A DNA stretch of 64,000 nucleotides from a virus (taxonomy: Duplodnaviria > Heunggongvirae > Uroviricota > Caudoviricetes): IMG/VR virus record IMGVR_UViG_3300026549_000070; one strand, 5' to 3'. Of this stretch, positions 859 to 64,000 are shown piece by piece. Both the position numbers and the translations under genes were made by a program. A model generated the notes under the pieces. It was not told the DNA's origin. It saw nothing but the letters and a program-made list of their open reading frames with translations, and made no database searches. Positions within the stretch are counted from its first letter, which is position 1. The number at the start of each line of letters is the position of its first letter.

Positions 859-3800
859 TTGATGAATACAGAAGAATTTTACAATGGCTCACCTTATGAA
901 GTGGGCACTATGGATAACCTTGCAGAAACAAAGGTAAGCTATAATAACCTTGTAAAAGTTGTCCACGATGCTGCAGGCAGAAAAGGTTTAACTCTTTCTG
1001 AGTTTCTTAATTTGCAAAAATCTTCAGAAGAGTCTTCTGAGCTTGTTACATACCTTGATGAAAAAGGGTACTCTGTTCGCTCAATGGGCGAGGACGCAAA
1101 AATCTTTAATAATCAGATAAACACTCAAGCCGCTTTACAAACAATTCAAAACTTCTATGATATGTATATCTCTCCAACACAAGGAGACGCTCAATATCGT
1201 TTAGGAGAAGTTACAGGTCGCGCACTCCCAGGAACTGTAAATAATCAAACTGACGATCAAGGTCGTTTATTTACAAGATCTTTATATAACACAGTACTTA
1301 AATATAAAATTTGGAAAGTTGACCGTCTTGTAGATACTGAAGAATATTATTCTGTTCTTTGGTTCCCACCTTTTAAGCCAAACAGCGTTAAAGCTACTTC
1401 TTGGAAAGGCGCATATGTTTCTGACAACAGTGAAACAATTTCTCTTTCAATGGGAGAATATCTTTCACAAGCAAAAGCAAAGCGACAAGAAGAACTTGAT
1501 GAACTTAATGCAAAGCTGATTGAAGCTGGTGAAGAAGTTACACAAACAGAAGCAGATGATACACGCCTCGTTAAAAATCCATCAGCAACAAATGATAGCG
1601 CAAAATATTATGATACATTTGACTTAAACAAGTTTCTTGCAGCTCGTTCTTCATTTACATACCGTGCGCCTGGCTTCAAAGCAATCAATGATAACATTAA
1701 TATGATTCAGTGGCTTTTTGAAGGCTGCACAGGAATTGTATCAACATATCTTACAGAATGGGATATTTCATTATATCTTCAAGAAGGCCTTATATCTGAT
1801 TTTAATGGCACAATGCCAAATTACATTTTATTGACTCATCGTATGGATAAAGACAATCCTTCAGGATATACTGATGAACGGGCAGCTTCTTACGGTGTAG
1901 TAAACTGTGCTGTTTCAAAACTTAACTCAGATTATCATAAAACTTGGTATATCAATGCTTATCCATATTCGTCTTGGCATACTGCGTATCCTGACCCTTG
2001 GAAGATGGCAGGCTGGCTTGATAAGATTGAACAGAATGGCCAAATCGTTTATGTGCCAAACTGGTTTAAGTTTGGTCGTGAAGGCGTAAGCAACTACCTT
2101 GCTGGTAAAGATCTCGGTTATAAACCACGCCGTGACTGTATTAGTTCACGCTTGCTTTATCAAGATTTTGAAAATGCTGCTCTTTCAGGTTACACTGATT
2201 GGTCTTTTGATAAAAAGATTTGGAAAGCTCTTTACACTGGCGATGATGACGGCTTTACAGATATTGACTTAGTTTATTTATCAACATCTTGTGGTATGTT
2301 CAAAAAAGCTGACTTAATTGACCAAGTTGAAATGATTCTTTATGGCGTTTCTGCTGACGGTGTTCCTTATGATGGTTCAGAAGTCATAGGCGGTGATAAC
2401 GGCTCTGGTAACGGCAATATTACAAATGATGAAGAATATTCTTATTCTTCTGCTGAAGGTTCTGGCGGAAATAAGTACTGTCCAGGAAGTGTTTTCAAAG
2501 GTGCATTAACATTCTTAAATATGTTCAACACAAAAGATAGTAAGAAGAATGCTTCAATGTCACAAGCAGAAAGCCGTTTGCAAAGTGATAGCGGCAACAC
2601 TTATGGAGTAATGCAAGATTCACTTGGTATTACAAAACAGGCATCTACAGGTCAGCCAGCCACTTTAACAGAAGATGGTTACATTCTTGGAACTAAAAAA
2701 GCATTTACTGAAAACTCTATTGGCGTAGGTGTTCCTCAGTACAACCCAACATTATATGGTGGACCTCACGGATACTACCGTTCACCTGAGTCATATCAAT
2801 CTTACTATGAAGAAAACTCTGTTTACTTAAGAAATGTACCTCGTATTGATAAATGTCCTAATAGCTTCAGTCACGACTCTTGGGCAGGAATTACTTGGCC
2901 ATCACTTCCAAACTGGCAAGATAACTACTACTATAAAGGAAATGAAAAATGGACTTCAAACGTTGGCGCAGTTGCAAATGGTGAAAAGCAGTCATTTGAA
3001 CAATCTTGGTCTGCTGGTTTTGCTCGATTAAAGCAAGGTGTTCACTCTTACTCAATGCAAACTGCATACATCAGACGCCGTCACGATACTATCATTGAAG
3101 GTCACTTACATAGAAAACATCGTTGGTGGGCTGGCTGGAGAGGCTGGTACTCTTGGCGTTATTTTGGCTACGACGTTGGTTGGGACCAGCGTGCAAGTAA
3201 CGGTGAGTTGCTTAATCGCTATGGCAACTATTGGTGGGAGTGGCGTAAATCAACATTGTACAGCAATCGTTGGTGGTGGAATTCACTTTGGAATAATTGG
3301 GCATATTATGATGCTTGGCTAAACTATTACAACTTTTATTTCTCTTGGCAATATAGCTGGGGCTGGAAATGCGTATTGCATCGTTATGTACCTTGCACTT
3401 GGGCTTGGCATTATGAATGGTGCTATGCTGACTTCAAAAGATATGTTATTCATAATGGCTTCCACGATTATAAGTGGAAGATTGCTATGGTTCAGCACTA
3501 TAATGCAACTCTTGACCCACGGTCAAATGATAAGTTCCGTAACAGATGGGCTGCAACATTCTCAAAGATGTTTGGCTATTCAACACCTTATGAGAGAGCG
3601 TATCTTTCAGCATCAACAGAAGATTATGAATTATTTATTGACGACTCAGGTAAGCAGCCAGGAACACTGTTTGAAAAATACGATGACAAATATAAACAAG
3701 TAATTTCTTCTTATATGACAGTTAAGGAACATAATGTAATGGACTATTTAGTTGACTGGGGACGAGGCGTCGGTGCCCATAATAAACTTATGTTCTTGAC

Positions 3801-54297: not shown

Positions 54298-55533
54298 ATG
54301 AAACATTTTGAAAAACTCGAAAACTTCGTAAAGTCAAATCCAAACTGGGAAGACATTCTCAGACCAAATATGAAATCCATTTATCCTGTTGAAGGTCGTA
54401 ACTGGGTTGTACTTATGTACAATCTTATGGATATGCCTAAAGACAAGGAAATATTTGATATAATGTGTCAGTGCCGTGGTACTGTAATTGACAAAACCAC
54501 AGGTGAAATCATCTGTGCACCGTTCACAAAGTTTTGGAATTACAAAGATGAAGGCGTTGCTGCTGATATTGATTGGGACTCTGCTTGGGTTTCACATAAG
54601 CGTGACGGCTGGATTTTCAAAGCATTCAAATGGCACGGCAATGTTTATTGGATGTCAAATGGTCGTGTGATTACTGAGAATGAGAAGGGCGCTCCTGTTG
54701 ACTATGTCCCAGGCTTGCCAAGATTGAACAATATGTCTGATGTTCTTTTACGGGCATTGACAAACGACGGTTCATCTGCTTTCTTCTCAGATGGCTTCTT
54801 GTTCTCAGATTGTGAATGGGCAAAAAGAATGCCTGAAGGTTCAACAGCAATGTTTGAATTGGAGTCACCTTGGAACAGAATTCATACTGACTTGGTAAAA
54901 GATGCAAAACTTTGGCTTATCGGTTTCCGTATGCCAAGCGGCGATGAAATAACTTTCACTGAAGCAAAAGAAAGATTCAACTTTCCTTTTGAAACGCCAA
55001 AGATGTATGATTTCAAGTCCGCAAAAGAAATGCTTGATGTACTTGCAGGTTGGAATGTAAAAGACAACGGTGAAGGTGTTGTTGTATGTGACAAATACTT
55101 CAACCGTGTAAAAGTCAAAATTGATGATTACATTCGTGTAAAGTTTGAATCAAGAGGCGAAGACTTTGGTGACAACCGCTTGTTCAAATATTATTGTATG
55201 AATGAAGTTGATGACCTTTGTGCTGCTGATCCAAAAGTAAAAGCTCGTGTTGAGGAAATCTCTCACAATGTTCAGTTGTACCGTAAATGGCTTGAAGAAA
55301 AAGTTGAATATGTCAACACTGTAATTGCAACAAAATATGCAGACAAGAAAGAGTTCTTCACTTCTGTTGATGATGACTTCCCTGAGGATGCTGCTTTGTT
55401 CAAACAGCTTTACGGCAAGAATGCAGAAAATCTTTTTAAGAACTTTATCGAAAAAGGTAAAGTGTCAAAAACTTTATACCGTGATACTCTCCATCTTATG
55501 GGTATGGAGATGACTGATGGAACAGAGGAGTAA
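54298..55533 (+). CDS. RNA ligase 1 (T4 RnlA-like)
   Basis: MCQCRGTVIDKTTGEI parallels LECRGIMFEMDGEK. Motif I SHKRDGWIF parallels TKEDGSLVS. EGVVVCDKYFNRVKVKIDDY parallels [20 protein letters not shown]. Confidence 0.7.
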   Translation: MKHFEKLENFVKSNPNWEDILRPNMKSIYPVEGRNWVVLMYNLMDMPKDKEIFDIMCQCRGTVIDKTTGEIICAPFTKFWNYKDEGVAADIDWDSAWVSHKRDGWIFKAFKWHGNVYWMSNGRVITENEKGAPVDYVPGLPRLNNMSDVLLRALTNDGSSAFFSDGFLFSDCEWAKRMPEGSTAMFELESPWNRIHTDLVKDAKLWLIGFRMPSGDEITFTEAKERFNFPFETPKMYDFKSAKEMLDVLAGWNVKDNGEGVVVCDKYFNRVKVKIDDYIRVKFESRGEDFGDNRLFKYYCMNEVDDLCAADPKVKARVEEISHNVQLYRKWLEEKVEYVNTVIATKYADKKEFFTSVDDDFPEDAALFKQLYGKNAENLFKNFIEKGKVSKTLYRDTLHLMGMEMTDGTEE

Positions 55534-58496: not shown

Positions 58497-58552
58497 AAAT
58501 ATTTAAGAATTTTTTGAACTTTTTCAAACATTCTTTTATATTATTATTGTCA
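58496..58552 (+). promoter_or_regulatory. class I conserved promoter with an extended upstream element; this 54-nt block is repeated exactly at 60965..61018
   Basis: aaaatatttaagaattttttgaactttttcaaacattcttttatattattattgt. Confidence 0.55.
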
Positions 58553-58575
58553 AAAACGTAAACAAGGAGGCAGGT

Positions 58576-58800
58576 ATGACAAAGACAGTAACAGCAACTT
58601 GGAACTTCGATTTGGATGCAGGAAAGGATAAGGGATTTGTTCTTCTTGTAGGTTTCAACAGTGACGGTTCAAAGGGTATTGGATATGGTCTTTGGGATGA
58701 TCACAAAAATGCTTGGTTGTCTGACTCAACTCTTGAGCCGATGCCAAATTTCACTCCTAAAGCTTGGTTGAAAGACGCAACTCTCATTCCTGAGATGTAA
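58576..58800 (+). CDS. hypothetical early protein (74 aa)
   Basis: RBS acaaggaggcaggtatg. Confidence 0.5.
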   Translation: MTKTVTATWNFDLDAGKDKGFVLLVGFNSDGSKGIGYGLWDDHKNAWLSDSTLEPMPNFTPKAWLKDATLIPEM

Positions 58801-58806
58801 TTTTTT

Positions 58807-58879
58807 GGTTCCTTCGAATAACTGGTTAATTCGCGAGCCTCTCAAGCTCGAAAAATGGGTTCAAGCCCCGTAGGAACCA
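58807..58879 (+). tRNA. tRNA-Glu (anticodon CUC)
   Basis: Full cloverleaf by hand: acceptor GGUUCCU/AGGAACC; D stem GAAU/AUUC; anticodon stem CGAGC/GCUCG with loop CUCUCAA; T-arm with UUCAAGC loop. Confidence 0.55.
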
Positions 58880-59008
58880 TATTTGACAACTTCGATGTAG
58901 ATGGCTACACAGAGAACGGGAAATATGAGGAGTTATACTCAACCGCTGGAAGCACCGGATGGTAAAGGCCTGTATATGACGACGCAGGATGAAGTCGATA
59001 CCGTCAAA

Positions 59009-59121
59009 GGAGAACATTAGTTCGAAAGCTCAAAAAGCAGTGCACGGCAAAGTAGAGCAGGGTCTAGAACGCTGGGTGTAGTATGCTCAGAAACTGAGGT
59101 TCGAATCCTCTATGTTCTAAA
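59009..59121 (+). ncRNA. tRNA-like element, 113 nt (acceptor AGAACAU/AUGUUCU plus T-arm); too long for a simple tRNA, so possibly intron-containing
   Basis: Perfect acceptor complementarity flanks the T-arm UGAGG-UUCGAAU-CCUCU. Confidence 0.25.
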
Positions 59122-59179
59122 GGTTGGCAACCAAACCTCTAAGGTTCCATACAAGCAGGAGCAATCTGTAAGGCTTGTT

Positions 59180-59266
59180 AAGTGCGATGAAGGAAAAAGG
59201 TAAGGCTTATACACCCTCTGGGTTGACGCACACTGAGAGCGGGTTCAATTCCCGACTGCACTTATA
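59180..59266 (+). ncRNA. tRNA-like element (T-arm GCGGG-UUCAAUU-CCCGA; acceptor AGUGCGA/CUGCACU with one mismatch)
   Basis: T-arm plus acceptor complementarity; the D arm is unresolved. Confidence 0.25.
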
Positions 59267-59271
59267 CTGAT

Positions 59272-59346
59272 GGTGGAAATTGTTGGATCCGTGAAGTTCG
59301 CAAGGCTGGAGTAACGGCAAGGTTCAAGTCCTTGTTTCACTTATAT
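59272..59346 (+). ncRNA. tRNA-like element (T-arm CAAGG-UUCAAGU-CCUUG; acceptor GGUGGAA/UUUCACU with G-U pairs)
   Basis: T-arm plus acceptor complementarity; interior unresolved. Confidence 0.25.
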
Positions 59347-59351
59347 CTTAC

Positions 59352-59440
59352 TCGGGAGTAAAGAGTAATTGGTACCTCCCCAGACTTTGATTCTGGTGAC
59401 GCATATCAGCGTCGTGCAGGTTCGAATCCCGCCTTCCGAA
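59352..59440 (+). tRNA. type II-like tRNA (long variable-arm hairpin GACGC-auauca-GCGUC) with an anticodon loop reading UUG; two extra nt before the D stem; identity uncertain
   Basis: Acceptor UCGGGAG/CUUCCGA; anticodon stem CCAGA/UCUGG with loop CUUUGAU; T-arm GCAGG-UUCGAAU-CCCGC. Confidence 0.3.
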
Positions 59441-59604
59441 CTAGGAGTTCATTAAACGTCACTATGGGTGAAAGTCCCATCAACCTCGCAGCAGTGATGC
59501 TACTCGTATGGCTTGCAAAAATCGAATGCAGGTAGCGGGGCTGTAGTTTGAGAAAGTAAAACCGGCAAGAACTCTTTCTCCTTACTAATTATTAAGAGGA
59601 CAAT

Positions 59605-60204
59605 ATGATTGAACAAAATGATGCACAAGAATGTTTAGACAGTTTGCTTGATAAGCTTGAGGATGCAGGTATTCCGTGTCCAACACTTTCTATAAATGTT
59701 GTCGACTTTGACTTCACAGGAATGAAAGCAAAGTACAACATTTCAGAAAAAAGTATTTCTGTTTGGAAAAAAGTTTCTAAAGAGGACTTGTCTAAATATG
59801 TTGCACACGAATTATGTCACGCATTTGAAAGATTGAATGGTGTCCCAGTTATTGTAGGCGGCGAACTTTCAGATATGTATGATGTAATCAACACTGACTC
59901 TTTGCGTCATAAGTTTATGAAGTTGATAAGTTTATTCCAAATTCTCTCAAGAGTTTGGACAAGCTTTGAAGCAGCAGAAAATTGCATCGAGAAGCTTGAT
60001 ACACTTATTGATGAGCTTTATGATATTGCCAGCGATGGCGATCCTGAGAACAAAGAGTTCTGCAAAGCTTTCTTTTCAAATTATGATAAGATTTATGACA
60101 GCGTAACTTATTATGCAGATGGCGGTCATAACGAAGATTTCCTTAATTGGAAAGATAAGTTATCAAAATTGTTTGGAATTGAAATTCCTACAGCAGAAGA
60201 CTAA
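59605..60204 (+). CDS. hypothetical protein (199 aa)
   Basis: RBS aagaggacaatatg. Confidence 0.45.
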   Translation: MIEQNDAQECLDSLLDKLEDAGIPCPTLSINVVDFDFTGMKAKYNISEKSISVWKKVSKEDLSKYVAHELCHAFERLNGVPVIVGGELSDMYDVINTDSLRHKFMKLISLFQILSRVWTSFEAAENCIEKLDTLIDELYDIASDGDPENKEFCKAFFSNYDKIYDSVTYYADGGHNEDFLNWKDKLSKLFGIEIPTAED

Positions 60205-60446
60205 AAATATGTTAATATAAAAATACGAAAAATAAATTACCACTCTTACATTTTTTAAGAGTGGTACTAATTGAAATATATTAAGGAAGGGTTATTAAAA
60301 ATGACTTCATTGTATTCATTGACAGCAGAAGTTCTCACAACAAGATCATTATTGAATAATGATGTTAGAACTGCTATCACTACAGATGAATACGATTATA
60401 ATGAAGAAGATACGAGGTTGCCTTAGAGAACTGAGAAATGTTTCCC

Positions 60447-60484
60447 TGAGGCAAACCGATGAAGGTTTGCCTTTTTTGTTTTAT
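60447..60484 (+). terminator. rho-independent terminator
   Basis: gaggcaaacc-gatgaa-ggtttgcct followed by tttttgtttt. Confidence 0.6.
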
Positions 60485-60513
60485 ACAAAAATTGCAAAAA
60501 AAATAAAAATTTT

Positions 60514-60550
60514 TGAACTTTGAAAAAACTTCTTTTATATTATTATTGTC
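60514..60550 (+). promoter_or_regulatory. class I conserved promoter
   Basis: ttgaactttgaaaaaacttcttttatattattattgt. Confidence 0.55.
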
Positions 60551-60584
60551 AAAACGCAATATTGTTTTTATAAAGGAGTAAAAC

Positions 60585-60893
60585 ATGAAAACAATTCATT
60601 TGGAAAACATTAAAAAAATTGATGGTAAGCCTTGCAAAATTATTTACAATGGAGCTTGTGCTTTTGAAATTGATGTCGATTATATGGACGGCAGACGAAA
60701 CCTTAATTATATCATCAATAAAATCTGTGAAACCAATACAGAAACTTTTGTTATTCGTCCAGGAGACAAAATTATTTCTGATGGTAAAACAGGCGAAATT
60801 GTAAAATACAGTGATTTTGCATACGGCATCGATTATGAGGACGGCAAATCAGGTGATTTTGAGTTTTTACCTGAATGTTTCAAGATACTTTAA
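60585..60893 (+). CDS. hypothetical early protein (102 aa)
   Basis: RBS taaaggagtaaaacatg. Confidence 0.5.
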   Translation: MKTIHLENIKKIDGKPCKIIYNGACAFEIDVDYMDGRRNLNYIINKICETNTETFVIRPGDKIISDGKTGEIVKYSDFAYGIDYEDGKSGDFEFLPECFKIL

Positions 60894-60921
60894 TTGCTCC
60901 TTATAATTTGTTGTTCTTAAG

Positions 60922-60960
60922 CTCGAGAAACGAGAAAACTTATTTCTCGAGTTAATTATT
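60922..60960 (+). terminator. probable terminator
   Basis: ctcgagaaa-cgagaaaacttat-tttctcgag followed by ttaattatt. Confidence 0.4.
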
Positions 60961-60964
60961 GACA

Positions 60965-61018
60965 AAAATATTTAAGAATTTTTTGAACTTTTTCAAACAT
61001 TCTTTTATATTATTATTG
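60965..61018 (+). promoter_or_regulatory. class I conserved promoter (exact 54-nt repeat of 58496..58549) driving the downstream tRNA array
   Basis: Identical 54-mer; the first tRNA begins ~50 nt downstream. Confidence 0.55.
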
Positions 61019-61065
61019 TAAACTGATACAAAAGGTTTACAACAAAAGAAGGAAACTTCAAATAT

Positions 61066-61138
61066 GGTTCCGTAGATCAACTGGTTAGATCGCGGCCCTT
61101 TCAAGGCTGAAATCCGAGTTCAAGTCTCGGCGGATCTA
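61066..61138 (+). tRNA. tRNA-Glu (anticodon UUC), with one U-U mismatch in the acceptor
   Basis: Acceptor GGUUCCG/CGGAUCU; D stem GAUC/GAUC; anticodon stem CGGCC/GGCUG with loop CUUUCAA; T-arm CCGAG-UUCAAGU-CUCGG. Confidence 0.5.
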
Positions 61139-61144
61139 AGAACG

Positions 61145-61224
61145 TTAAACGGAATAAAATAACAGCTTGGTTGCTGCCACCTCGTGGTATCGTTCGGTGG
61201 AAGGTTCGAATCCTTGAAAAAGCA
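61145..61224 (+). ncRNA. orphan T-arm-containing tRNA-like fragment
   Basis: GAAGG-UUCGAAU-CCUUG, but no complementary 5' acceptor was found upstream. Confidence 0.2.
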
Positions 61225-61273
61225 TACGGGTAATTCTTTTCCTTGCAAAAGGTTTCTTATACCTAGAATTTTT

Positions 61274-61312
61274 GGGGTATTGGTGGAGTTGGCTACCACG
61301 CTAGCCTGTGAT
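61274..61312 (+). tRNA. 5' half of a tRNA-His-like gene (acceptor GGGGUAU, D-arm GUGG-AGUUGGCUA-CCAC, anticodon stem CUAGC and loop CUGUGAU, so anticodon GUG), interrupted after the anticodon loop
   Basis: Canonical 5' half by hand; the 3' anticodon strand GCUAG does not follow here but is found at 62008, downstream of the inserted ORF. Confidence 0.4.
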
Positions 61313-61328
61313 ATATACTAATTATTAT

Positions 61329-61988
61329 ATGAGAGAACAGAAAAACGCATATAACAATTGGAAATGTACAGTTTGCGGAAATGTTTTTAGAACAAGAGCT
61401 TTGCTTCAAACTCATAGAAAAGAGCAGCATAGTGAAATTAAGATGACGTCTAGTTTTACAGACTTAATTTCTTATGATTGTCCTTTTTGTGGAAGGCATA
61501 GAGCTAATGTTAGAAGATGCGCTAAATCAGCACATATTTTACATTGTTCTAAAAACCCAGACAGAGTTCCTAAAAAGGGGCATAAACTGTCTGATGAACA
61601 AAAAAAGCTTATTTCTGAAAAAATGAAAAAAGCACATCTAGAAGGACGTGCTGGGACATTTCCTTCTAGAAAAAATTGTGAGCACAGCTATCCAGAAAAA
61701 TGGCTAATTGGTGTTCTTAATAGAGAGCTTGGTTTTATAGAAGATAAAGATTATAAAACTGAGTATTTCTTTCATAAACAGTTTTTAGATTTTGCTTGGC
61801 CAGAAAGAAAATTATGTATTGAAATTGATGGTCAACAACACGAAAGATTTGTTGAAAGAAAATTAAATGATGCTAAAAAAGATGAAAATCTTAAAGCAGA
61901 AAATTGGAAACTTTTAAGGCTTAGGTGGTCTGATATTTGTAATAATACCCAAGAGTATATTCAGCAAATATTAAGTTTTCTAAAATAA
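61329..61988 (+). CDS. homing endonuclease-like protein (C2H2-type zinc fingers, a NUMOD-like motif, and a DUF559/Vsr-like endonuclease domain) inserted within the tRNA array
   Basis: WKCTVCGNVFRTRALLQTHRKEQH; KGHKLSDEQKKLISEKM; FLDFAWPERKLCIEIDGQQH...LLRLRW (the DUF559 signature). Confidence 0.6.
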   Translation: MREQKNAYNNWKCTVCGNVFRTRALLQTHRKEQHSEIKMTSSFTDLISYDCPFCGRHRANVRRCAKSAHILHCSKNPDRVPKKGHKLSDEQKKLISEKMKKAHLEGRAGTFPSRKNCEHSYPEKWLIGVLNRELGFIEDKDYKTEYFFHKQFLDFAWPERKLCIEIDGQQHERFVERKLNDAKKDENLKAENWKLLRLRWSDICNNTQEYIQQILSFLK

Positions 61989-62007
61989 ATGGTTTTGCAA
62001 GCAGCAG

Positions 62008-62062
62008 CTAGCAGGTCAGACTGTTTATCGGAAGGTCGCGAGTTCGATGCTCGCATATCCCG
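62008..62062 (+). tRNA. candidate 3' portion of the split tRNA-His-like gene: GCUAG complementary to the 5' anticodon strand, a 25-nt spacer, T-arm GCGAG-UUCGAUG-CUCGC, and acceptor 3' strand AUAUCCC complementary to GGGGUAU
   Basis: The acceptor 3' strand pairs with the 5' half at 61274, with G-U pairs allowed. The long spacer is atypical for tRNA-His. Confidence 0.3.
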
Positions 62063-62067
62063 CTACC

Positions 62068-62124
62068 GACAATAGGAACCGACGATAAGATGTTGACAAT
62101 AGGTTCCGACGATAGGGAATATTT
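62068..62124. repeat. four tandem ~11-bp direct repeats (CCGACAATAGG / CCGACGATAAG / TTGACAATAGG / CCGACGATAGG)
   Basis: Seen directly in the sequence between the tRNA-His 3' part and tRNA-Asn. Confidence 0.5.
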
Positions 62125-62199
62125 GCTCCGTTAGCTCTTAACGGTTAGAGCGGAGGACTGTTAATCCTAAGGTTGCAGGTTCGAATCCTGCACGGAGCG
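62125..62199 (+). tRNA. tRNA-Asn (anticodon GUU)
   Basis: Clean cloverleaf: acceptor GCUCCGU/ACGGAGC; D stem GCUC/GAGC; anticodon loop CUGUUAA; T-arm GCAGG-UUCGAAU-CCUGC. Confidence 0.65.
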
Positions 62200-62276
62200 T
62201 AAAGTTTGAAAGTCAATATATCTTTTGAACGAGCTGCTATACTTCCGTCCAGTCTTAGAAGTAGTTCACAGTTTTT

Positions 62277-62348
62277 GGTTCCGTCGGCTAACGGCTAGGC
62301 CATCTGGTTTTCATCCAGAGAACGAAGGTTCGACTCCTTTCGGAACTG
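62277..62348 (+). tRNA. tRNA-Glu (anticodon UUC), second copy
   Basis: Acceptor GGUUCCG/CGGAACU; D stem GGCU/GGCC; anticodon stem UCUGG/CCAGA with loop UUUUCAU; T-arm GAAGG-UUCGACU-CCUUU. Confidence 0.55.
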
Positions 62349-62360
62349 TACATTATGCTT

Positions 62361-62436
62361 GCCCTTGTAGCTTAGTTGGTCTAAAGCACCCGCCCTGTAA
62401 GCGGGAGATCCACGGTTCGAATCCAGTGCTAGGGCT
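62361..62436 (+). tRNA. tRNA-Thr-like (anticodon UGU) with non-canonical C33 and a bulged T-stem; possibly degenerate
   Basis: Acceptor GCCCUUG/CUAGGGC (one mismatch); D stem GCUU/AAGC; anticodon stem CCCGC/GCGGG with loop CCUGUAA. Confidence 0.35.
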
Positions 62437-62444
62437 TACAATTT

Positions 62445-62532
62445 GGGATGGTATGTCCAGTGGCGAAGACAAATGACTGTAAATCATTCACCCTTGTGGT
62501 AAACATCGGGGGTTCGACTCCCTCTCATCCCA
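62445..62532 (+). tRNA. tRNA-Tyr (anticodon GUA), type II with a 19-nt variable arm
   Basis: Acceptor GGGAUGG/UCAUCCC; D stem UGUC/GACA; anticodon stem AAUGA/UCAUU with loop CUGUAAA; T-arm GGGGG-UUCGACU-CCCUC. Confidence 0.6.
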
Positions 62533-62877
62533 CTACTTTCAACTTCATTCTAGACAGAAGTTGACAAAAGTACAAACCTTTGTGAGACGAGCTCGCATTT
62601 GTTGGCTTAATCGTAGTAAGCCTAGGCACCTGTAGCTCCTTAACCCCTGAGAGTTTCTCGCGCGAAACGAAACTCTTGGATAAGTGCGGACATTAAGATC
62701 AAGTATCGGGCGTTCCGTTTGAAAGGTGGTTTGTTTATTGGTCTATTAGTGAAGCAGCTAACACGCCTGCCTGTCACGCAGGAGATGACCGGGGCAGCAC
62801 CGGTATAGACCGTACATATCGCAAATAGCGCGATAAGTTCTTTGACATATATGATTTCTTTGTTTTGTTTTTTACAT
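62533..62877 (+). ncRNA. ~345-nt non-coding, GC-rich structured spacer between tRNA-Tyr and the next tRNA-like gene (function unknown)
   Basis: No plausible ORF on either strand; many local hairpins, e.g. gagagtttctcgcgcgaaacgaaactcttgg. Confidence 0.25.
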
Positions 62878-62958
62878 TTCAGGGTATCACTAATGGTAAG
62901 TTGCAAGGCTCATAACCTTGTGCCGAAAGGCTTGTGGGTTCAAATCCCACCCCTGAGT
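62878..62958 (+). tRNA. tRNA-like gene with a CAU anticodon and an unusual hairpin variable arm (GCC-gaaa-GGC); acceptor and D stems imperfect
   Basis: Anticodon stem CAAGG/CCUUG with loop CUCAUAA; T-arm GUGGG-UUCAAAU-CCCAC; acceptor UUCAGGG/CCCUGAG with a U-G pair. Confidence 0.35.
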
Positions 62959-63099
62959 CTTTTGGAGGACAGTAAGAAATCCTACTTCTTATTGAAGAGT
63001 TTTCATTCGAGACTTTTCTAACTCCAAGTTTCATTTTTTTTCCTTTTTATACTAAATTGTATAAAGAGCCGTAGGAAGCTCGTTAAAGGAGAAAATCGA

Positions 63100-63909
63100 A
63101 TGTATATGAAAACTTATCAATGTGAGTTCTGTAATAGAACTATTGACTATACTAATATAGGTCGTCACCGAAAAACTTGTATTAAAAATCCCAATTCTGA
63201 GAAGTGTAAAGAACAAAACAAAGAAAGGACTTGTGAAAGGTGCAAATGCATTTATACATTAAGTGAAGCAGGAAGCACGAAAAGATTCTGTTCTAGGTCT
63301 TGTGCTAATGCTAGAGATCATTCTAGTGAGACTAAACTTAAAATGAGTGAATCTTTAAAAGTTTTTTACGAAGAACATCCTAAATGTAATGCAAAATCAA
63401 AATTACCCGAAAGTTTCTGCATTGTTTGTAATAAACAAATATCTAGAAAAAATAAGTCTGGATATTGTAAGGGATGCTTTCACTTAAGGCCAGTTTCATT
63501 GGAAACAAGAGAAAAGCTTTCTAGAGCAGGAAAGAAAAGCGCTCAAGTTCAAAAGAACAATAGACGTTCAAAAATAGAAGCGTTGTTCTTTGAAAAGATA
63601 AAAAAGATTTTTGATGATGCTGAGTCAAATAAAATCTTAGTTGACGGCTGGGACACAGATGTATTTCTCCCGACGCAACAAATTGCTATATTTTGGAATG
63701 GCCCGTGCCATTACTATCCAATATATGGTCAAAAAAGTTTAAATCAAACTCAAAATAGAGACAGAATTAAAAAGTCTTTGTTTGAGAAAGCAGGATATAA
63801 AGTTTATATTGTAAAAGATGTAGATGAGGCGTATCCGAAAGAAATTCGGAAAAACAGAGATAAAAGAACAGATGTCCAATTAGACTTGTTTTTAGAATTT
63901 CTAGGGTGA
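63100..63909 (+). CDS. homing endonuclease-like protein (multiple Cys zinc-finger repeats plus a DUF559/Vsr-like endonuclease domain)
   Basis: CEFCNR...CIKN, CERCKC, FCIVCNK...CKGC. The C-terminal region aligns with the DUF559 domain of the 61329 protein. Confidence 0.55.
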   Translation: MYMKTYQCEFCNRTIDYTNIGRHRKTCIKNPNSEKCKEQNKERTCERCKCIYTLSEAGSTKRFCSRSCANARDHSSETKLKMSESLKVFYEEHPKCNAKSKLPESFCIVCNKQISRKNKSGYCKGCFHLRPVSLETREKLSRAGKKSAQVQKNNRRSKIEALFFEKIKKIFDDAESNKILVDGWDTDVFLPTQQIAIFWNGPCHYYPIYGQKSLNQTQNRDRIKKSLFEKAGYKVYIVKDVDEAYPKEIRKNRDKRTDVQLDLFLEFLG

Positions 63910-63940
63910 AGGTTCGATTCCATCACCCGCAATCATTTGG
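63910..63940 (+). ncRNA. T-arm-like remnant (AAGGUUCGAUUCC) immediately after the HEG stop; possibly another tRNA fragment
   Basis: ggtgaaggttcgattccatcacccgca. Confidence 0.15.
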
Positions 63941-64000
63941 GCAAATGGCGGAACTAGGTATACGCTCCTGTCTCAAAAGCAGGCGCCGAAAGGATTGAGA

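Follow-up and report, generated by a model that had tools for sequence, protein, structure and literature searches.

The window analyzed here is a stretch of 64,000 nucleotides from the IMG/VR virus record IMGVR_UViG_3300026549_000070 (Caudoviricetes). Within a tRNA gene array of this window, an ORF of 219 codons is bracketed by two tRNA-like segments (Table 1). The upstream segment corresponds to the 5' part of a tRNA and stops in the anticodon loop, whereas the downstream segment ends with a T-arm and an acceptor strand, ATATCCC, that pairs with the upstream strand GGGGTAT at 7 of the 7 positions. A preliminary description of this locus listed the tRNA 5' part, the ORF, a GCTAG motif complementary to the anticodon stem, the T-arm and the matching acceptor strand, and all these elements were recovered when the coordinates were checked, although GCTAG starts at 62007 rather than at 62008. 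The spacer reported between GCTAG and the T-arm exists as well, but measures 26 nt, not 25 nt, and represents the anticodon arm of a second, co-inserted tRNA sequence (type B, see below).

Table 1. Features of the interrupted tRNA locus (positions in the window)
Feature	Position	Strand	Comment
5' relic of tRNA-Asp type A	61274..61309	+	tRNA positions 1-35, from the acceptor 5' strand to loop C32-U35
Acceptor 5' strand GGGGTAT	61274-61280	+	
D-arm GTGG/CCAC	within the 5' relic	+	
Anticodon stem 5' strand CTAGC	61301-61305	+	
Apparent loop CTGTGAT	61306-61312	+	CTGT from the gene, the rest from the filler
5-nt filler GATAT, left junction	61310..61314	+	not in the ORF-free allele
Endonuclease leader ATACTAATTATTAT	61315..61328	+	14 nt; left end of the mobile unit
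Endonuclease ORF	61329..61988	+	219 aa; ATG 17 nt after the loop
AT dinucleotide and 42 nt of tRNA-Asp type B	61989..62032	+	co-inserted with the endonuclease gene
42-nt type-B part GGTTTTGCAAGCAGCAGCTAGCAGGTCAGACTGTTTATCGGA			acceptor 5' strand GGTTTTG, D-arm region with GCTAG, anticodon arm TCAGA-CTGTTTA-TCGGA (degenerate)
GCTAG	62007-62011	+	D-loop region of the type-B part
3' part of type A	62033..62062	+	variable loop AGGTC, T-arm, acceptor 3' strand, G73
Crossover zone AGGTCGC	62033-62039	+	common to types A and B
T-arm GCGAG/TTCGATG/CTCGC	62038-62054	+	
Acceptor 3' strand ATATCCC	62055-62061	+	followed by the discriminator G62062
Native downstream spacer	62063..62118	+	outside the insertion; four CCGAC[A/G]ATA[G/A]G-like repeats and a hairpin; kept beside the intact L018 gene

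A search of IMG/VR with the exact 31-nt pattern of the 5' half returned 0 matches. With shorter degenerate patterns derived from both tRNA ends, ORF-free alleles, in which these ends are separated by approximately 54 nt, were found in the same database. One such allele, with the same flanks as in the window, belongs to IMGVR_UViG_3300021255_004000 (hereafter L018), a viral contig of 259 kb that is a near-identical relative: the array around the locus (58501-60555, 62201-62350 and 62444-62787) is 89-100% identical between the two. The L018 allele (GGGGTATTGGTGGAGTTGGCTACCACGCTAGCCTGTCACGCTAGAGGTCGCGAGTTCGATGCTCGCATATCCCG) is an ordinary 74-nt tRNA-Asp(GTC) gene, with the loop CTGTCAC and G73, which is called tRNA-Asp(gtc) by ARAGORN and scores 59.2 bits with Rfam; a second ORF-free allele, L019, scores 68.5 bits. 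Window positions 61217-61309 match positions 3615-3706 of the L018 reverse complement with 95.7% identity, and 62033-62118 match 3715-3800 with 98.8% identity. Between these two blocks, L018 contains only 8 nt, CACGCTAG, which comprise loop positions 36-38 and the 3' strand of the anticodon stem; around the left breakpoint, the intact allele reads GGGGTATTGGTGGAGTTGGCTACCACGCTAGCCTGT followed directly by CACGCTAG. In the window, these 8 nt are replaced with 723 nt (61310-62032; boundaries 61309/61310 and 62032/62033), and tRNA positions 36-43 are absent.

The match between the two tRNA ends is not due to chance because L018 contains them in a single intact gene, and because this ORF-free allele is tRNA-Asp(gtc), the interrupted gene is a tRNA-Asp gene, denoted type A. 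The L018-type allele combines a cloverleaf with the anticodon GUC, C38, G73 and G10, and represents the ancestral state, from which the window copy has kept G10 and G73 and lost C36-C38. The preliminary description had offered, as its fallback, a tRNA gene killed by the invasion of a homing endonuclease gene, and this is the part of it that the ORF-free tRNA-Asp allele, with 8 nt replaced by the insert, bears out. No ORF-free counterpart was detected among viral sequences for the similar relics in the family members L008 and L010 (0 matches), and a metagenome scan for them gave one chance match, to a coding region without a tRNA.

The 723-nt insert is composed of the filler GATAT, the leader, the ORF, the dinucleotide AT and the 42 nt of type B. 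The filler is missing also at the left junctions of L008, L010 and L022, where the relic runs straight into the leader. The leader ATACTAATTATTAT likewise precedes the orthologous ORF in L008, L010 and L060. The source of the 42 nt can be recognized in four relatives, L008, L057, L014 and L060 (93%, 86%, 66% and 65% endonuclease amino acid identity to the window, respectively), in which an intact type-B tRNA-Asp(GTC) gene (GGTCTTGTAAGCAG and following) starts 2 nt past the stop codon of the orthologous endonuclease; the L008 copy scores 49.1 bits with Rfam. The window sequence is identical to the first 42 nt of the intact type B at 31-35 of the 42 positions and then, from AGGTCGC (62033) on, to type A of L018 at 30 of 30. 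Thus, the 3' "half" of the locus is a B/A chimera, the parts of which are joined in register at the 7-nt identity AGGTCGC. In this chimera, the type-B 5' strand and the type-A 3' strand of the acceptor are paired at only 3 of the 7 positions, the anticodon stem contains an A.G mismatch, the anticodon is GTT, and U8 is replaced with C. GCTAG is present also in L014, with no 5' half in front of it; its complementarity to the 5' half of the window locus is coincidental, the motif being a part of the co-inserted type B. The event was an insertion combined with a replacement, with one homologous junction (AGGTCGC), one filler junction and co-inserted donor tRNA sequence.

The product of the ORF, described in the preliminary analysis as a DUF559 homing endonuclease, has a Pfam match to DUF559 (PF04480, E 7e-10, above the curated cut-off), together with a match to the C2H2 zinc finger. 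The 219-aa protein consists of two N-terminal zinc-finger-like motifs and a C-terminal DUF559 nuclease domain, probably Vsr-like (EDxHD-type). A single-sequence search of PDB retrieved zinc fingers only, and a profile search with the family reached 3hrl (DUF559 fold, E 1e-6) and 3r3p ("Mobile intron protein", E 2e-6). We take 3r3p to be the catalytic domain of I-Bth0305I, a homing endonuclease of the Vsr-like "EDxHD" type. Across the family, no variation is seen at D154, H171 and D181 and almost none at E165 and D167; the conserved E165, D167, H171 and D181 would fit a Vsr-like active site (PMC3384342, PMC2677866). The ORF is intact, with dN/dS values of 0.07, 0.12 and 0.23 in comparisons with L008, L057 and L012, respectively, and the gene is under purifying selection; an identical protein is encoded on 9 contigs. 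Among annotated phage records, there was no close DNA relative, and the homologs of the endonuclease were only distant ones, from Rhizobium, Lak and Corynebacterium phages. The gene has the characteristics of a homing gene, namely, an intact nuclease ORF, purifying selection, presence or absence with sharp boundaries, and co-conversion of a donor flank (42 nt).

The family was surveyed at 37 distinct loci (27 IMG/VR loci and 10 further contigs). All 37 members are located in co-oriented tRNA arrays, and at 12 of these loci, an intact tRNA gene starts between -38 and +7 nt from the endonuclease stop codon. The close clade (47-93% identity) comprises ten lineages, in all of which the next element downstream of the endonuclease gene is a tRNA-Asp gene or what is left of a damaged one. 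Six lineages have an intact tRNA-Asp(GTC) gene at -11 to +2 of the stop codon; in L059 and L063, the tRNA-Asp gene overlaps the end of the endonuclease ORF. The other four lineages, the window, L010, L012 and L061, have a damaged Asp-like remnant. In L010 (81% amino acid identity), the endonuclease gene has a related 5' relic on one side and, on the 3' side, nothing but a T-arm and acceptor that match this relic; in L012, for which L019 is the ORF-free allele, a deletion between GAGTT repeats extends from the D-loop to the T-loop; and in L061, the anticodon arm is missing. An ARAGORN search in intron mode for tRNAs split by the endonuclease elsewhere, covering all family loci, produced calls that pair halves of neighboring tRNAs; the only call that spans the endonuclease ORF, in L029, is a false positive, where a normal tRNA-Lys gene overlaps the ORF end.

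Several 5' relics are cut in the same part of the anticodon loop. L008 carries an Asp-A-like relic that ends after CTGT, like the one in the window. In L018, a paralogous DUF559 gene, encoding a protein of 183 aa, is located in a tRNA-Asn gene: the relic TAGAGCGGAGGACCGT is followed by the shorter leader ACTAATTGAT, which precedes the Asn-linked paralog in both L018 and L022, and then by the ATG. This relic is the counterpart of the intact tRNA-Asn of the window (62124-62200) and is truncated at the corresponding loop position; the stop codon of the paralog is followed by another tRNA-Asn gene, which is intact, so that the pattern is reciprocal to that in the window. The position of the left junction differs by 3 nt or less among lineages, being located after U35 in the window, in L008 and in the tRNA-Asn relic of L018, and after position 38 in L010. 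Because of this variation by up to 3 nt, the junctions do not prove a single precise cut site.

The remnants of the window locus also differ between closely related contigs. Two contigs with an identical endonuclease protein, L006 and L007, show one synonymous change in the ORF and three changes each in the tRNA remnants. The substitution rate is 3/108 in the remnants vs 1/660 nt in the ORF, an 18.8-fold excess (Fisher p = 0.0097) that comes from few changes, two of which are shared by L006 and L007. None of the remnant changes is compensatory, and one of them, U35>C, turns the apparent anticodon of L006 into GCG.

We interpret the locus as a dead chimeric tRNA-Asp(GTC) gene, the anticodon loop of which was hit by a free-standing homing endonuclease cassette through ectopic homing, a reading to which we assign a probability of roughly 0.88. 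Under the proposed scenario, the type-A gene would have been cleaved by the endonuclease within or beside its anticodon loop during a co-infection. The right-hand broken end would have lost 8 nt and invaded the donor at AGGTCGC..GTTCGA, a short variable-loop/T-arm homology common to the two tRNA-Asp paralogs. Repair synthesis would then have extended through the 5' part of type B and the endonuclease gene with its leader, and the left end would have been joined without homology, leaving GATAT as filler. The predicted products are a 5' relic and a B/A chimera with an acceptor stem unable to form, neither of which is expected to be a functional tRNA or to be spliced, and an RNA joining the two halves would be absent.

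Searches for a group I or group II intron at the locus were negative. The preliminary description remarked that the flanks are too short for a group I core; there are 16-19 nt of non-coding sequence on the left and 2-18 nt on the right, and no such core was detected with Rfam. The group I/II scan proposed in the same description found no intron: at E<=10 on both strands of 58500-64000, there was no group I match anywhere and, within 61274-62063, neither a group II intron nor a tRNA, whereas inside 61313-62006, only noise was recovered (SCARNA4, SpR20). Unlike the removal of a group I intron, that of the insert does not restore the gene, given that CACGCTAG is not in the window; the ORF encodes a DUF559 nuclease and not the reverse transcriptase of a group II intron; and the absence of positions 36-43 of type A speaks against an archaeal arrangement of the BHB or split-tRNA type. 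Among 10 neighboring proteins that were scanned, there were 0 matches to a splicing endonuclease, and the sole match above the Pfam curated cut-off was an Rnl1-type ligase.

The reading preferred in the preliminary description was that of a functional tRNA-His encoded by a gene with an unconventional intron or split and obtained through processing. The Rnl1-type ligase of the phage might then join the halves. We consider this reading highly improbable. Standard ARAGORN detects no tRNA at the locus, and although its intron search does call "tRNA-His(gtg) i(40,702)", with a 702-nt intron, this call depends on a mismatch in the anticodon stem (GTCAG) and on a product that, with its long extra arm, measures 88 nt, and the same mode yields many false split tRNAs in these arrays. 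The apparent GUG anticodon is an artefact of the junction because GU comes from the gene and its third base, G, from the filler; in L006, with its identical protein, the triplet is GCG. Bacterial tRNA-His is recognized by G-1 paired with C73 and by the GUG anticodon, whereas T-1 with G73 fits Asp and not bacterial His. The window locus has T at position -1 and G as the discriminator, and so lacks the G-1/C73 pair as well as a genuine GUG. The 7/7 pairing of the acceptor strands is expected for a recent insertion and by itself does not exclude function, but the ORF-free allele is tRNA-Asp with the loop CTGTCAC, and the 8 nt required for completion are absent. Because these nucleotides include the 3' part of the loop and the 3' strand of the stem, no single excision restores a tRNA; a tRNA-like product would take two separate excisions and carry a His anticodon on an Asp body. 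The perfect complement GCTAG is accounted for by the type-B D-region, found in L014 without a 5' half, and L010, which has the same arrangement, contains no 3' anticodon strand at all. A T4 Rnl1-like ligase (54298-55533) and a CCA-adding enzyme are indeed encoded nearby, but the exon sequence that ligation-based splicing would need is missing, and this pathway was rejected for that reason. The genome also has an unrelated, intact tRNA-His elsewhere, and the comparison with homologous arrays lacking the endonuclease gene uncovered a differently organized tRNA (Asp) in L018, an observation that the preliminary description itself had named as contradicting its proposal. We give virtually no credence to another reading, in which the relic is confined to the upstream 5' part, and the 72-nt B/A chimera (61991-62062, anticodon GTT) serves as an Asn-like tRNA: its T-arm is regular, and the overall tRNA length and register are kept, but a working tRNA-Asn is ruled out by the stem pairing, with the acceptor at 3/7, the A.G mismatch in the anticodon stem and C in place of U8; moreover, the chimera is detected neither by ARAGORN nor by Rfam (E<=10), and near-identical contigs differ at non-compensated positions.

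A different explanation, which we regard as unlikely, retains the chimera but not the homing: ordinary homologous or illegitimate recombination of tRNA-Asp paralogs in co-infecting phages could have generated it, with the endonuclease gene as a passive passenger. The tRNA arrays of these phages are highly mosaic, and the homology to L018 is interrupted at several tRNA genes, one such break, at 62787, lying within another tRNA-Asp, but a passenger would hardly account for the tRNA-Asp gene or remnant found in the same relative position in each of the ten lineages of the endonuclease clade. The right junction is a plain homologous crossover in AGGTCGC, and the specificity of the endonuclease for this site is putative; the lesions in the linked remnants (the window, L010, L012 and L061), however, all remove or break the anticodon arm, and the loop position at which relics end recurs in independent contexts, one of them the tRNA-Asn gene that harbors a paralogous endonuclease. 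Such a pattern is what cleavage in the anticodon arm predicts, unlike random recombination.

Two broader propositions, to be taken jointly, go beyond this single locus and are advanced as tentative. The zinc-finger Vsr-like clade in large uncultivated phages might home to the DNA of the anticodon stem-loop in tRNA(GUN) genes (Asp, Asn), and the mobile unit might be a two-part cassette that consists of the endonuclease and a tRNA of matching isotype, divergent and immune to cleavage, located 2 nt after the stop codon or overlapping it. If so, the element would replace the tRNA gene that it destroys itself, and the window would represent a failed case, with the crossover inside the passenger tRNA.

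The loss of the type-A gene can be set against the other tRNA genes of this genome. Contig L001 matches the window with a single mismatch up to position ~63041, where the ungapped comparison breaks, consistent with a 1-nt indel. The intact tRNA-His(GTG), unrelated to the locus, is located ~4.8 kb downstream in the same genome, at 15417-15487 of L001. ARAGORN predicts 26 tRNAs in L001, with no tRNA-Asp among them. Rfam identifies a tRNA at 62740-62812 (44.8 bits), which its loop, CTGTCAC, identifies as Asp(GTC); its T-loop, GGCAGCA, is unusual. This third tRNA-Asp(GTC) probably takes care of Asp decoding.

Among the known systems, SegB is the nearest biological parallel. According to PMC13096335, SegB of phages T4 and T6 cuts inside tRNA genes and promotes the preferential inheritance of the tRNA region as well as its rearrangement (citing Brok-Volchanskaya 2008, PMC2330249), and is widely associated with tRNAs. 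In both systems, a free-standing endonuclease gene is embedded in a phage tRNA array. SegB adopts the GIY-YIG fold and has no link to one particular isotype, whereas the window nuclease is a DUF559, probably Vsr-like protein with zinc fingers, the clade of which is tied to tRNA-Asp, 2 nt upstream of its 5' end or overlapping it. Also unlike SegB, the endonuclease of the window, for which cleavage is presumed, landed inside a tRNA gene and destroyed that gene. The EDxHD/Vsr-like family has been described (PMC3384342, PMC2677866), with members found mostly in introns, inteins and fractured genes; the window protein, a putative member, differs in being free-standing and tRNA-linked and in its C2H2-type zinc fingers.

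The insert shares with other mobile elements some features of both its site and its junctions. The tRNA-fMet gene of Synechocystis contains an anticodon-loop group I intron that encodes the PD-(D/E)xK endonuclease I-Ssp6803I. The likeness to the window lies in the placement of an ORF of the broad PD-(D/E)xK superfamily within the anticodon loop of a tRNA gene. Unlike that intron, the window insert has no ribozyme core and almost no non-coding RNA, and it came with a loss of exon sequence and a co-inserted foreign tRNA, and for these reasons, it cannot splice. The I-Ssp6803I enzyme is reviewed in PMC3384342. With respect to the junctions, the window locus combines a homologous one (AGGTCGC) and a non-homologous one with filler, along with a co-converted donor flank. 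Such a combination would be an outcome of the illegitimate double-strand-break repair by which, as Parker, Belisle and Belfort reportedly found in 1999 (Genetics), homing endonuclease genes move to ectopic sites of limited homology. Those cases were experimental and involved T4 introns, whereas the window locus would be a natural product, reconstructed from the comparison of alleles.

The analysis of this locus removes a false lead, namely, that of a new system for the splicing of tRNAs or for split tRNAs in a phage. The event is of an ordinary kind, the remodeling of a phage tRNA array by a free-standing homing endonuclease, and provides a clean natural example, at nucleotide resolution, of such reshaping, with a chimeric pseudogene as the outcome. 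For genome annotation, the lesson is that intron-tolerant tRNA finders call such wrecks "intron-containing tRNAs" and assign them the wrong isotype. The strict linkage of the nuclease clade to tRNA-Asp extends the association between SegB and tRNAs to a second, unrelated nuclease fold and points to target sites at which new sequence-specific nucleases could be tested.

A paralogous DUF559 endonuclease without zinc fingers was found in L018, the near-identical relative carrying the ORF-free tRNA-Asp allele. There, it is located in the tRNA-Asn(GTT) gene, which is broken at the same anticodon-loop position as the tRNA-Asp gene of the window and of which a relic persists upstream of the endonuclease; the uninterrupted allele is the window tRNA-Asn at 62124-62200. 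The intact tRNA-Asn following the L018 endonuclease differs from the interrupted one and has a long extra arm. The window encodes another endonuclease-like protein, of 269 aa, which contains several Cys-rich motifs, is weakly alignable with the DUF559 family and appears to be the product of a further free-standing mobile gene of the tRNA array. This ORF lies just upstream of tRNA-Leu(CAA); in L018, tRNA-Met and tRNA-Leu(CAA) are separated by 3 nt, too little for an ORF of this type.

Among distant members of the family, the endonuclease ORF enters the downstream tRNA gene and terminates within it at six loci (see the table). A TAG at tRNA positions 8-10 visibly ends the ORF of both L044 and L063; the L029 ORF ends at the TAA of the anticodon loop CTCTTAA of tRNA-Lys(CTT). 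A recurrent (T)ATAAATA motif, which resembles the T4 late-promoter consensus, is present 5-20 nt 5' of the endonuclease ATG in many family members (L023, L024, L027, L030, L041, L043, L045, L046, L048, L054 and L055); in the window, its place is occupied by ATACTAATTATTAT.

The remaining tRNA-Asp copy is probably the sole Asp decoder in this part of the genome. It has an aberrant T-loop (GGCAGCA), scores 44.8 bits with Rfam and was not called by ARAGORN. Because the homology to L018 stops within this gene, at 62787, it may represent another recombination joint.

The 77-nt stretch 3' of tRNA-Glu, 100% identical to L018, contains the T-arm-like GGAAGGTTCGAATCCTT and no recognisable tRNA, and is possibly a further tRNA remnant or processing element; L018 has 80 additional nt immediately 3' of its counterpart. 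The 11-mer repeats (CCGACAATAGG, CCGACGATAAG, TTGACAATAGG and CCGACGATAGG), in which an inverted repeat, GGAACC...GGTTCC, is embedded, form a stretch with 98.8% conservation in L018.

The 90-nt UUG tRNA, with a long, stem-forming variable arm unusual in tRNA-Gln, is kept in three phage contigs, namely, the window, L018 and L012, a close-clade locus with a damaged tRNA-Asp remnant (Rfam, 28.3 bits in the window, just below the threshold, and 32.9 bits in L018). The related contig L010 encodes a tmRNA within its tRNA array, and L019, the ORF-free allele of L012, a tRNA of the ochre-suppressor type. Together, the Rnl1-type RNA ligase and the CCA-adding enzyme, the latter encoded on L001, a contig of the same genome continuing past the window, are a tRNA repair and maturation module flanking the array.

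Coordinates of features in the tRNA array and related loci
Feature	Location	Strand	Details
T4 Rnl1-type RNA ligase	window 54298-55533	+	PF09511; upstream of array
90-nt tRNA	window 59352-59441	+	UUG (Gln) anticodon
Its counterparts	L018 c3960-4048; L012 2430-2519		
77-nt stretch	window 61140-61216	+	
11-mer repeats	window 62063-62118	+	n=4; immediately 3' of tRNA-Asp gene
tRNA-Asp(GTC)	window 62740-62812	+	loop CTGTCAC; acceptor GGTCTAT/ATAGACC
Endonuclease-like ORF	window 63100-63909	+	NUMOD3, E 4e-4
CCA-adding enzyme	L001 17914-19302		PolyA_pol + HD; downstream of array
tRNA-Asn, 87 nt	L018 c1711-1797		6 nt past endonuclease stop
Paralogous endonuclease	L018 1804-2355	-	183 aa
tRNA-Asn(GTT) relic	L018 about 2356-2385		
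tmRNA	L010 7218-7586	+	Rfam 53.8 bits
tRNA, UUA anticodon	L019 2838-2910	+	Rfam 47 bits
Loci with endonuclease ORF ending in tRNA gene	L044 about 1850-1925; L039 about 1778-1855; L048 about 1490-1565; L063 1160-1236; L059 1229-1307; L029 1667-1738
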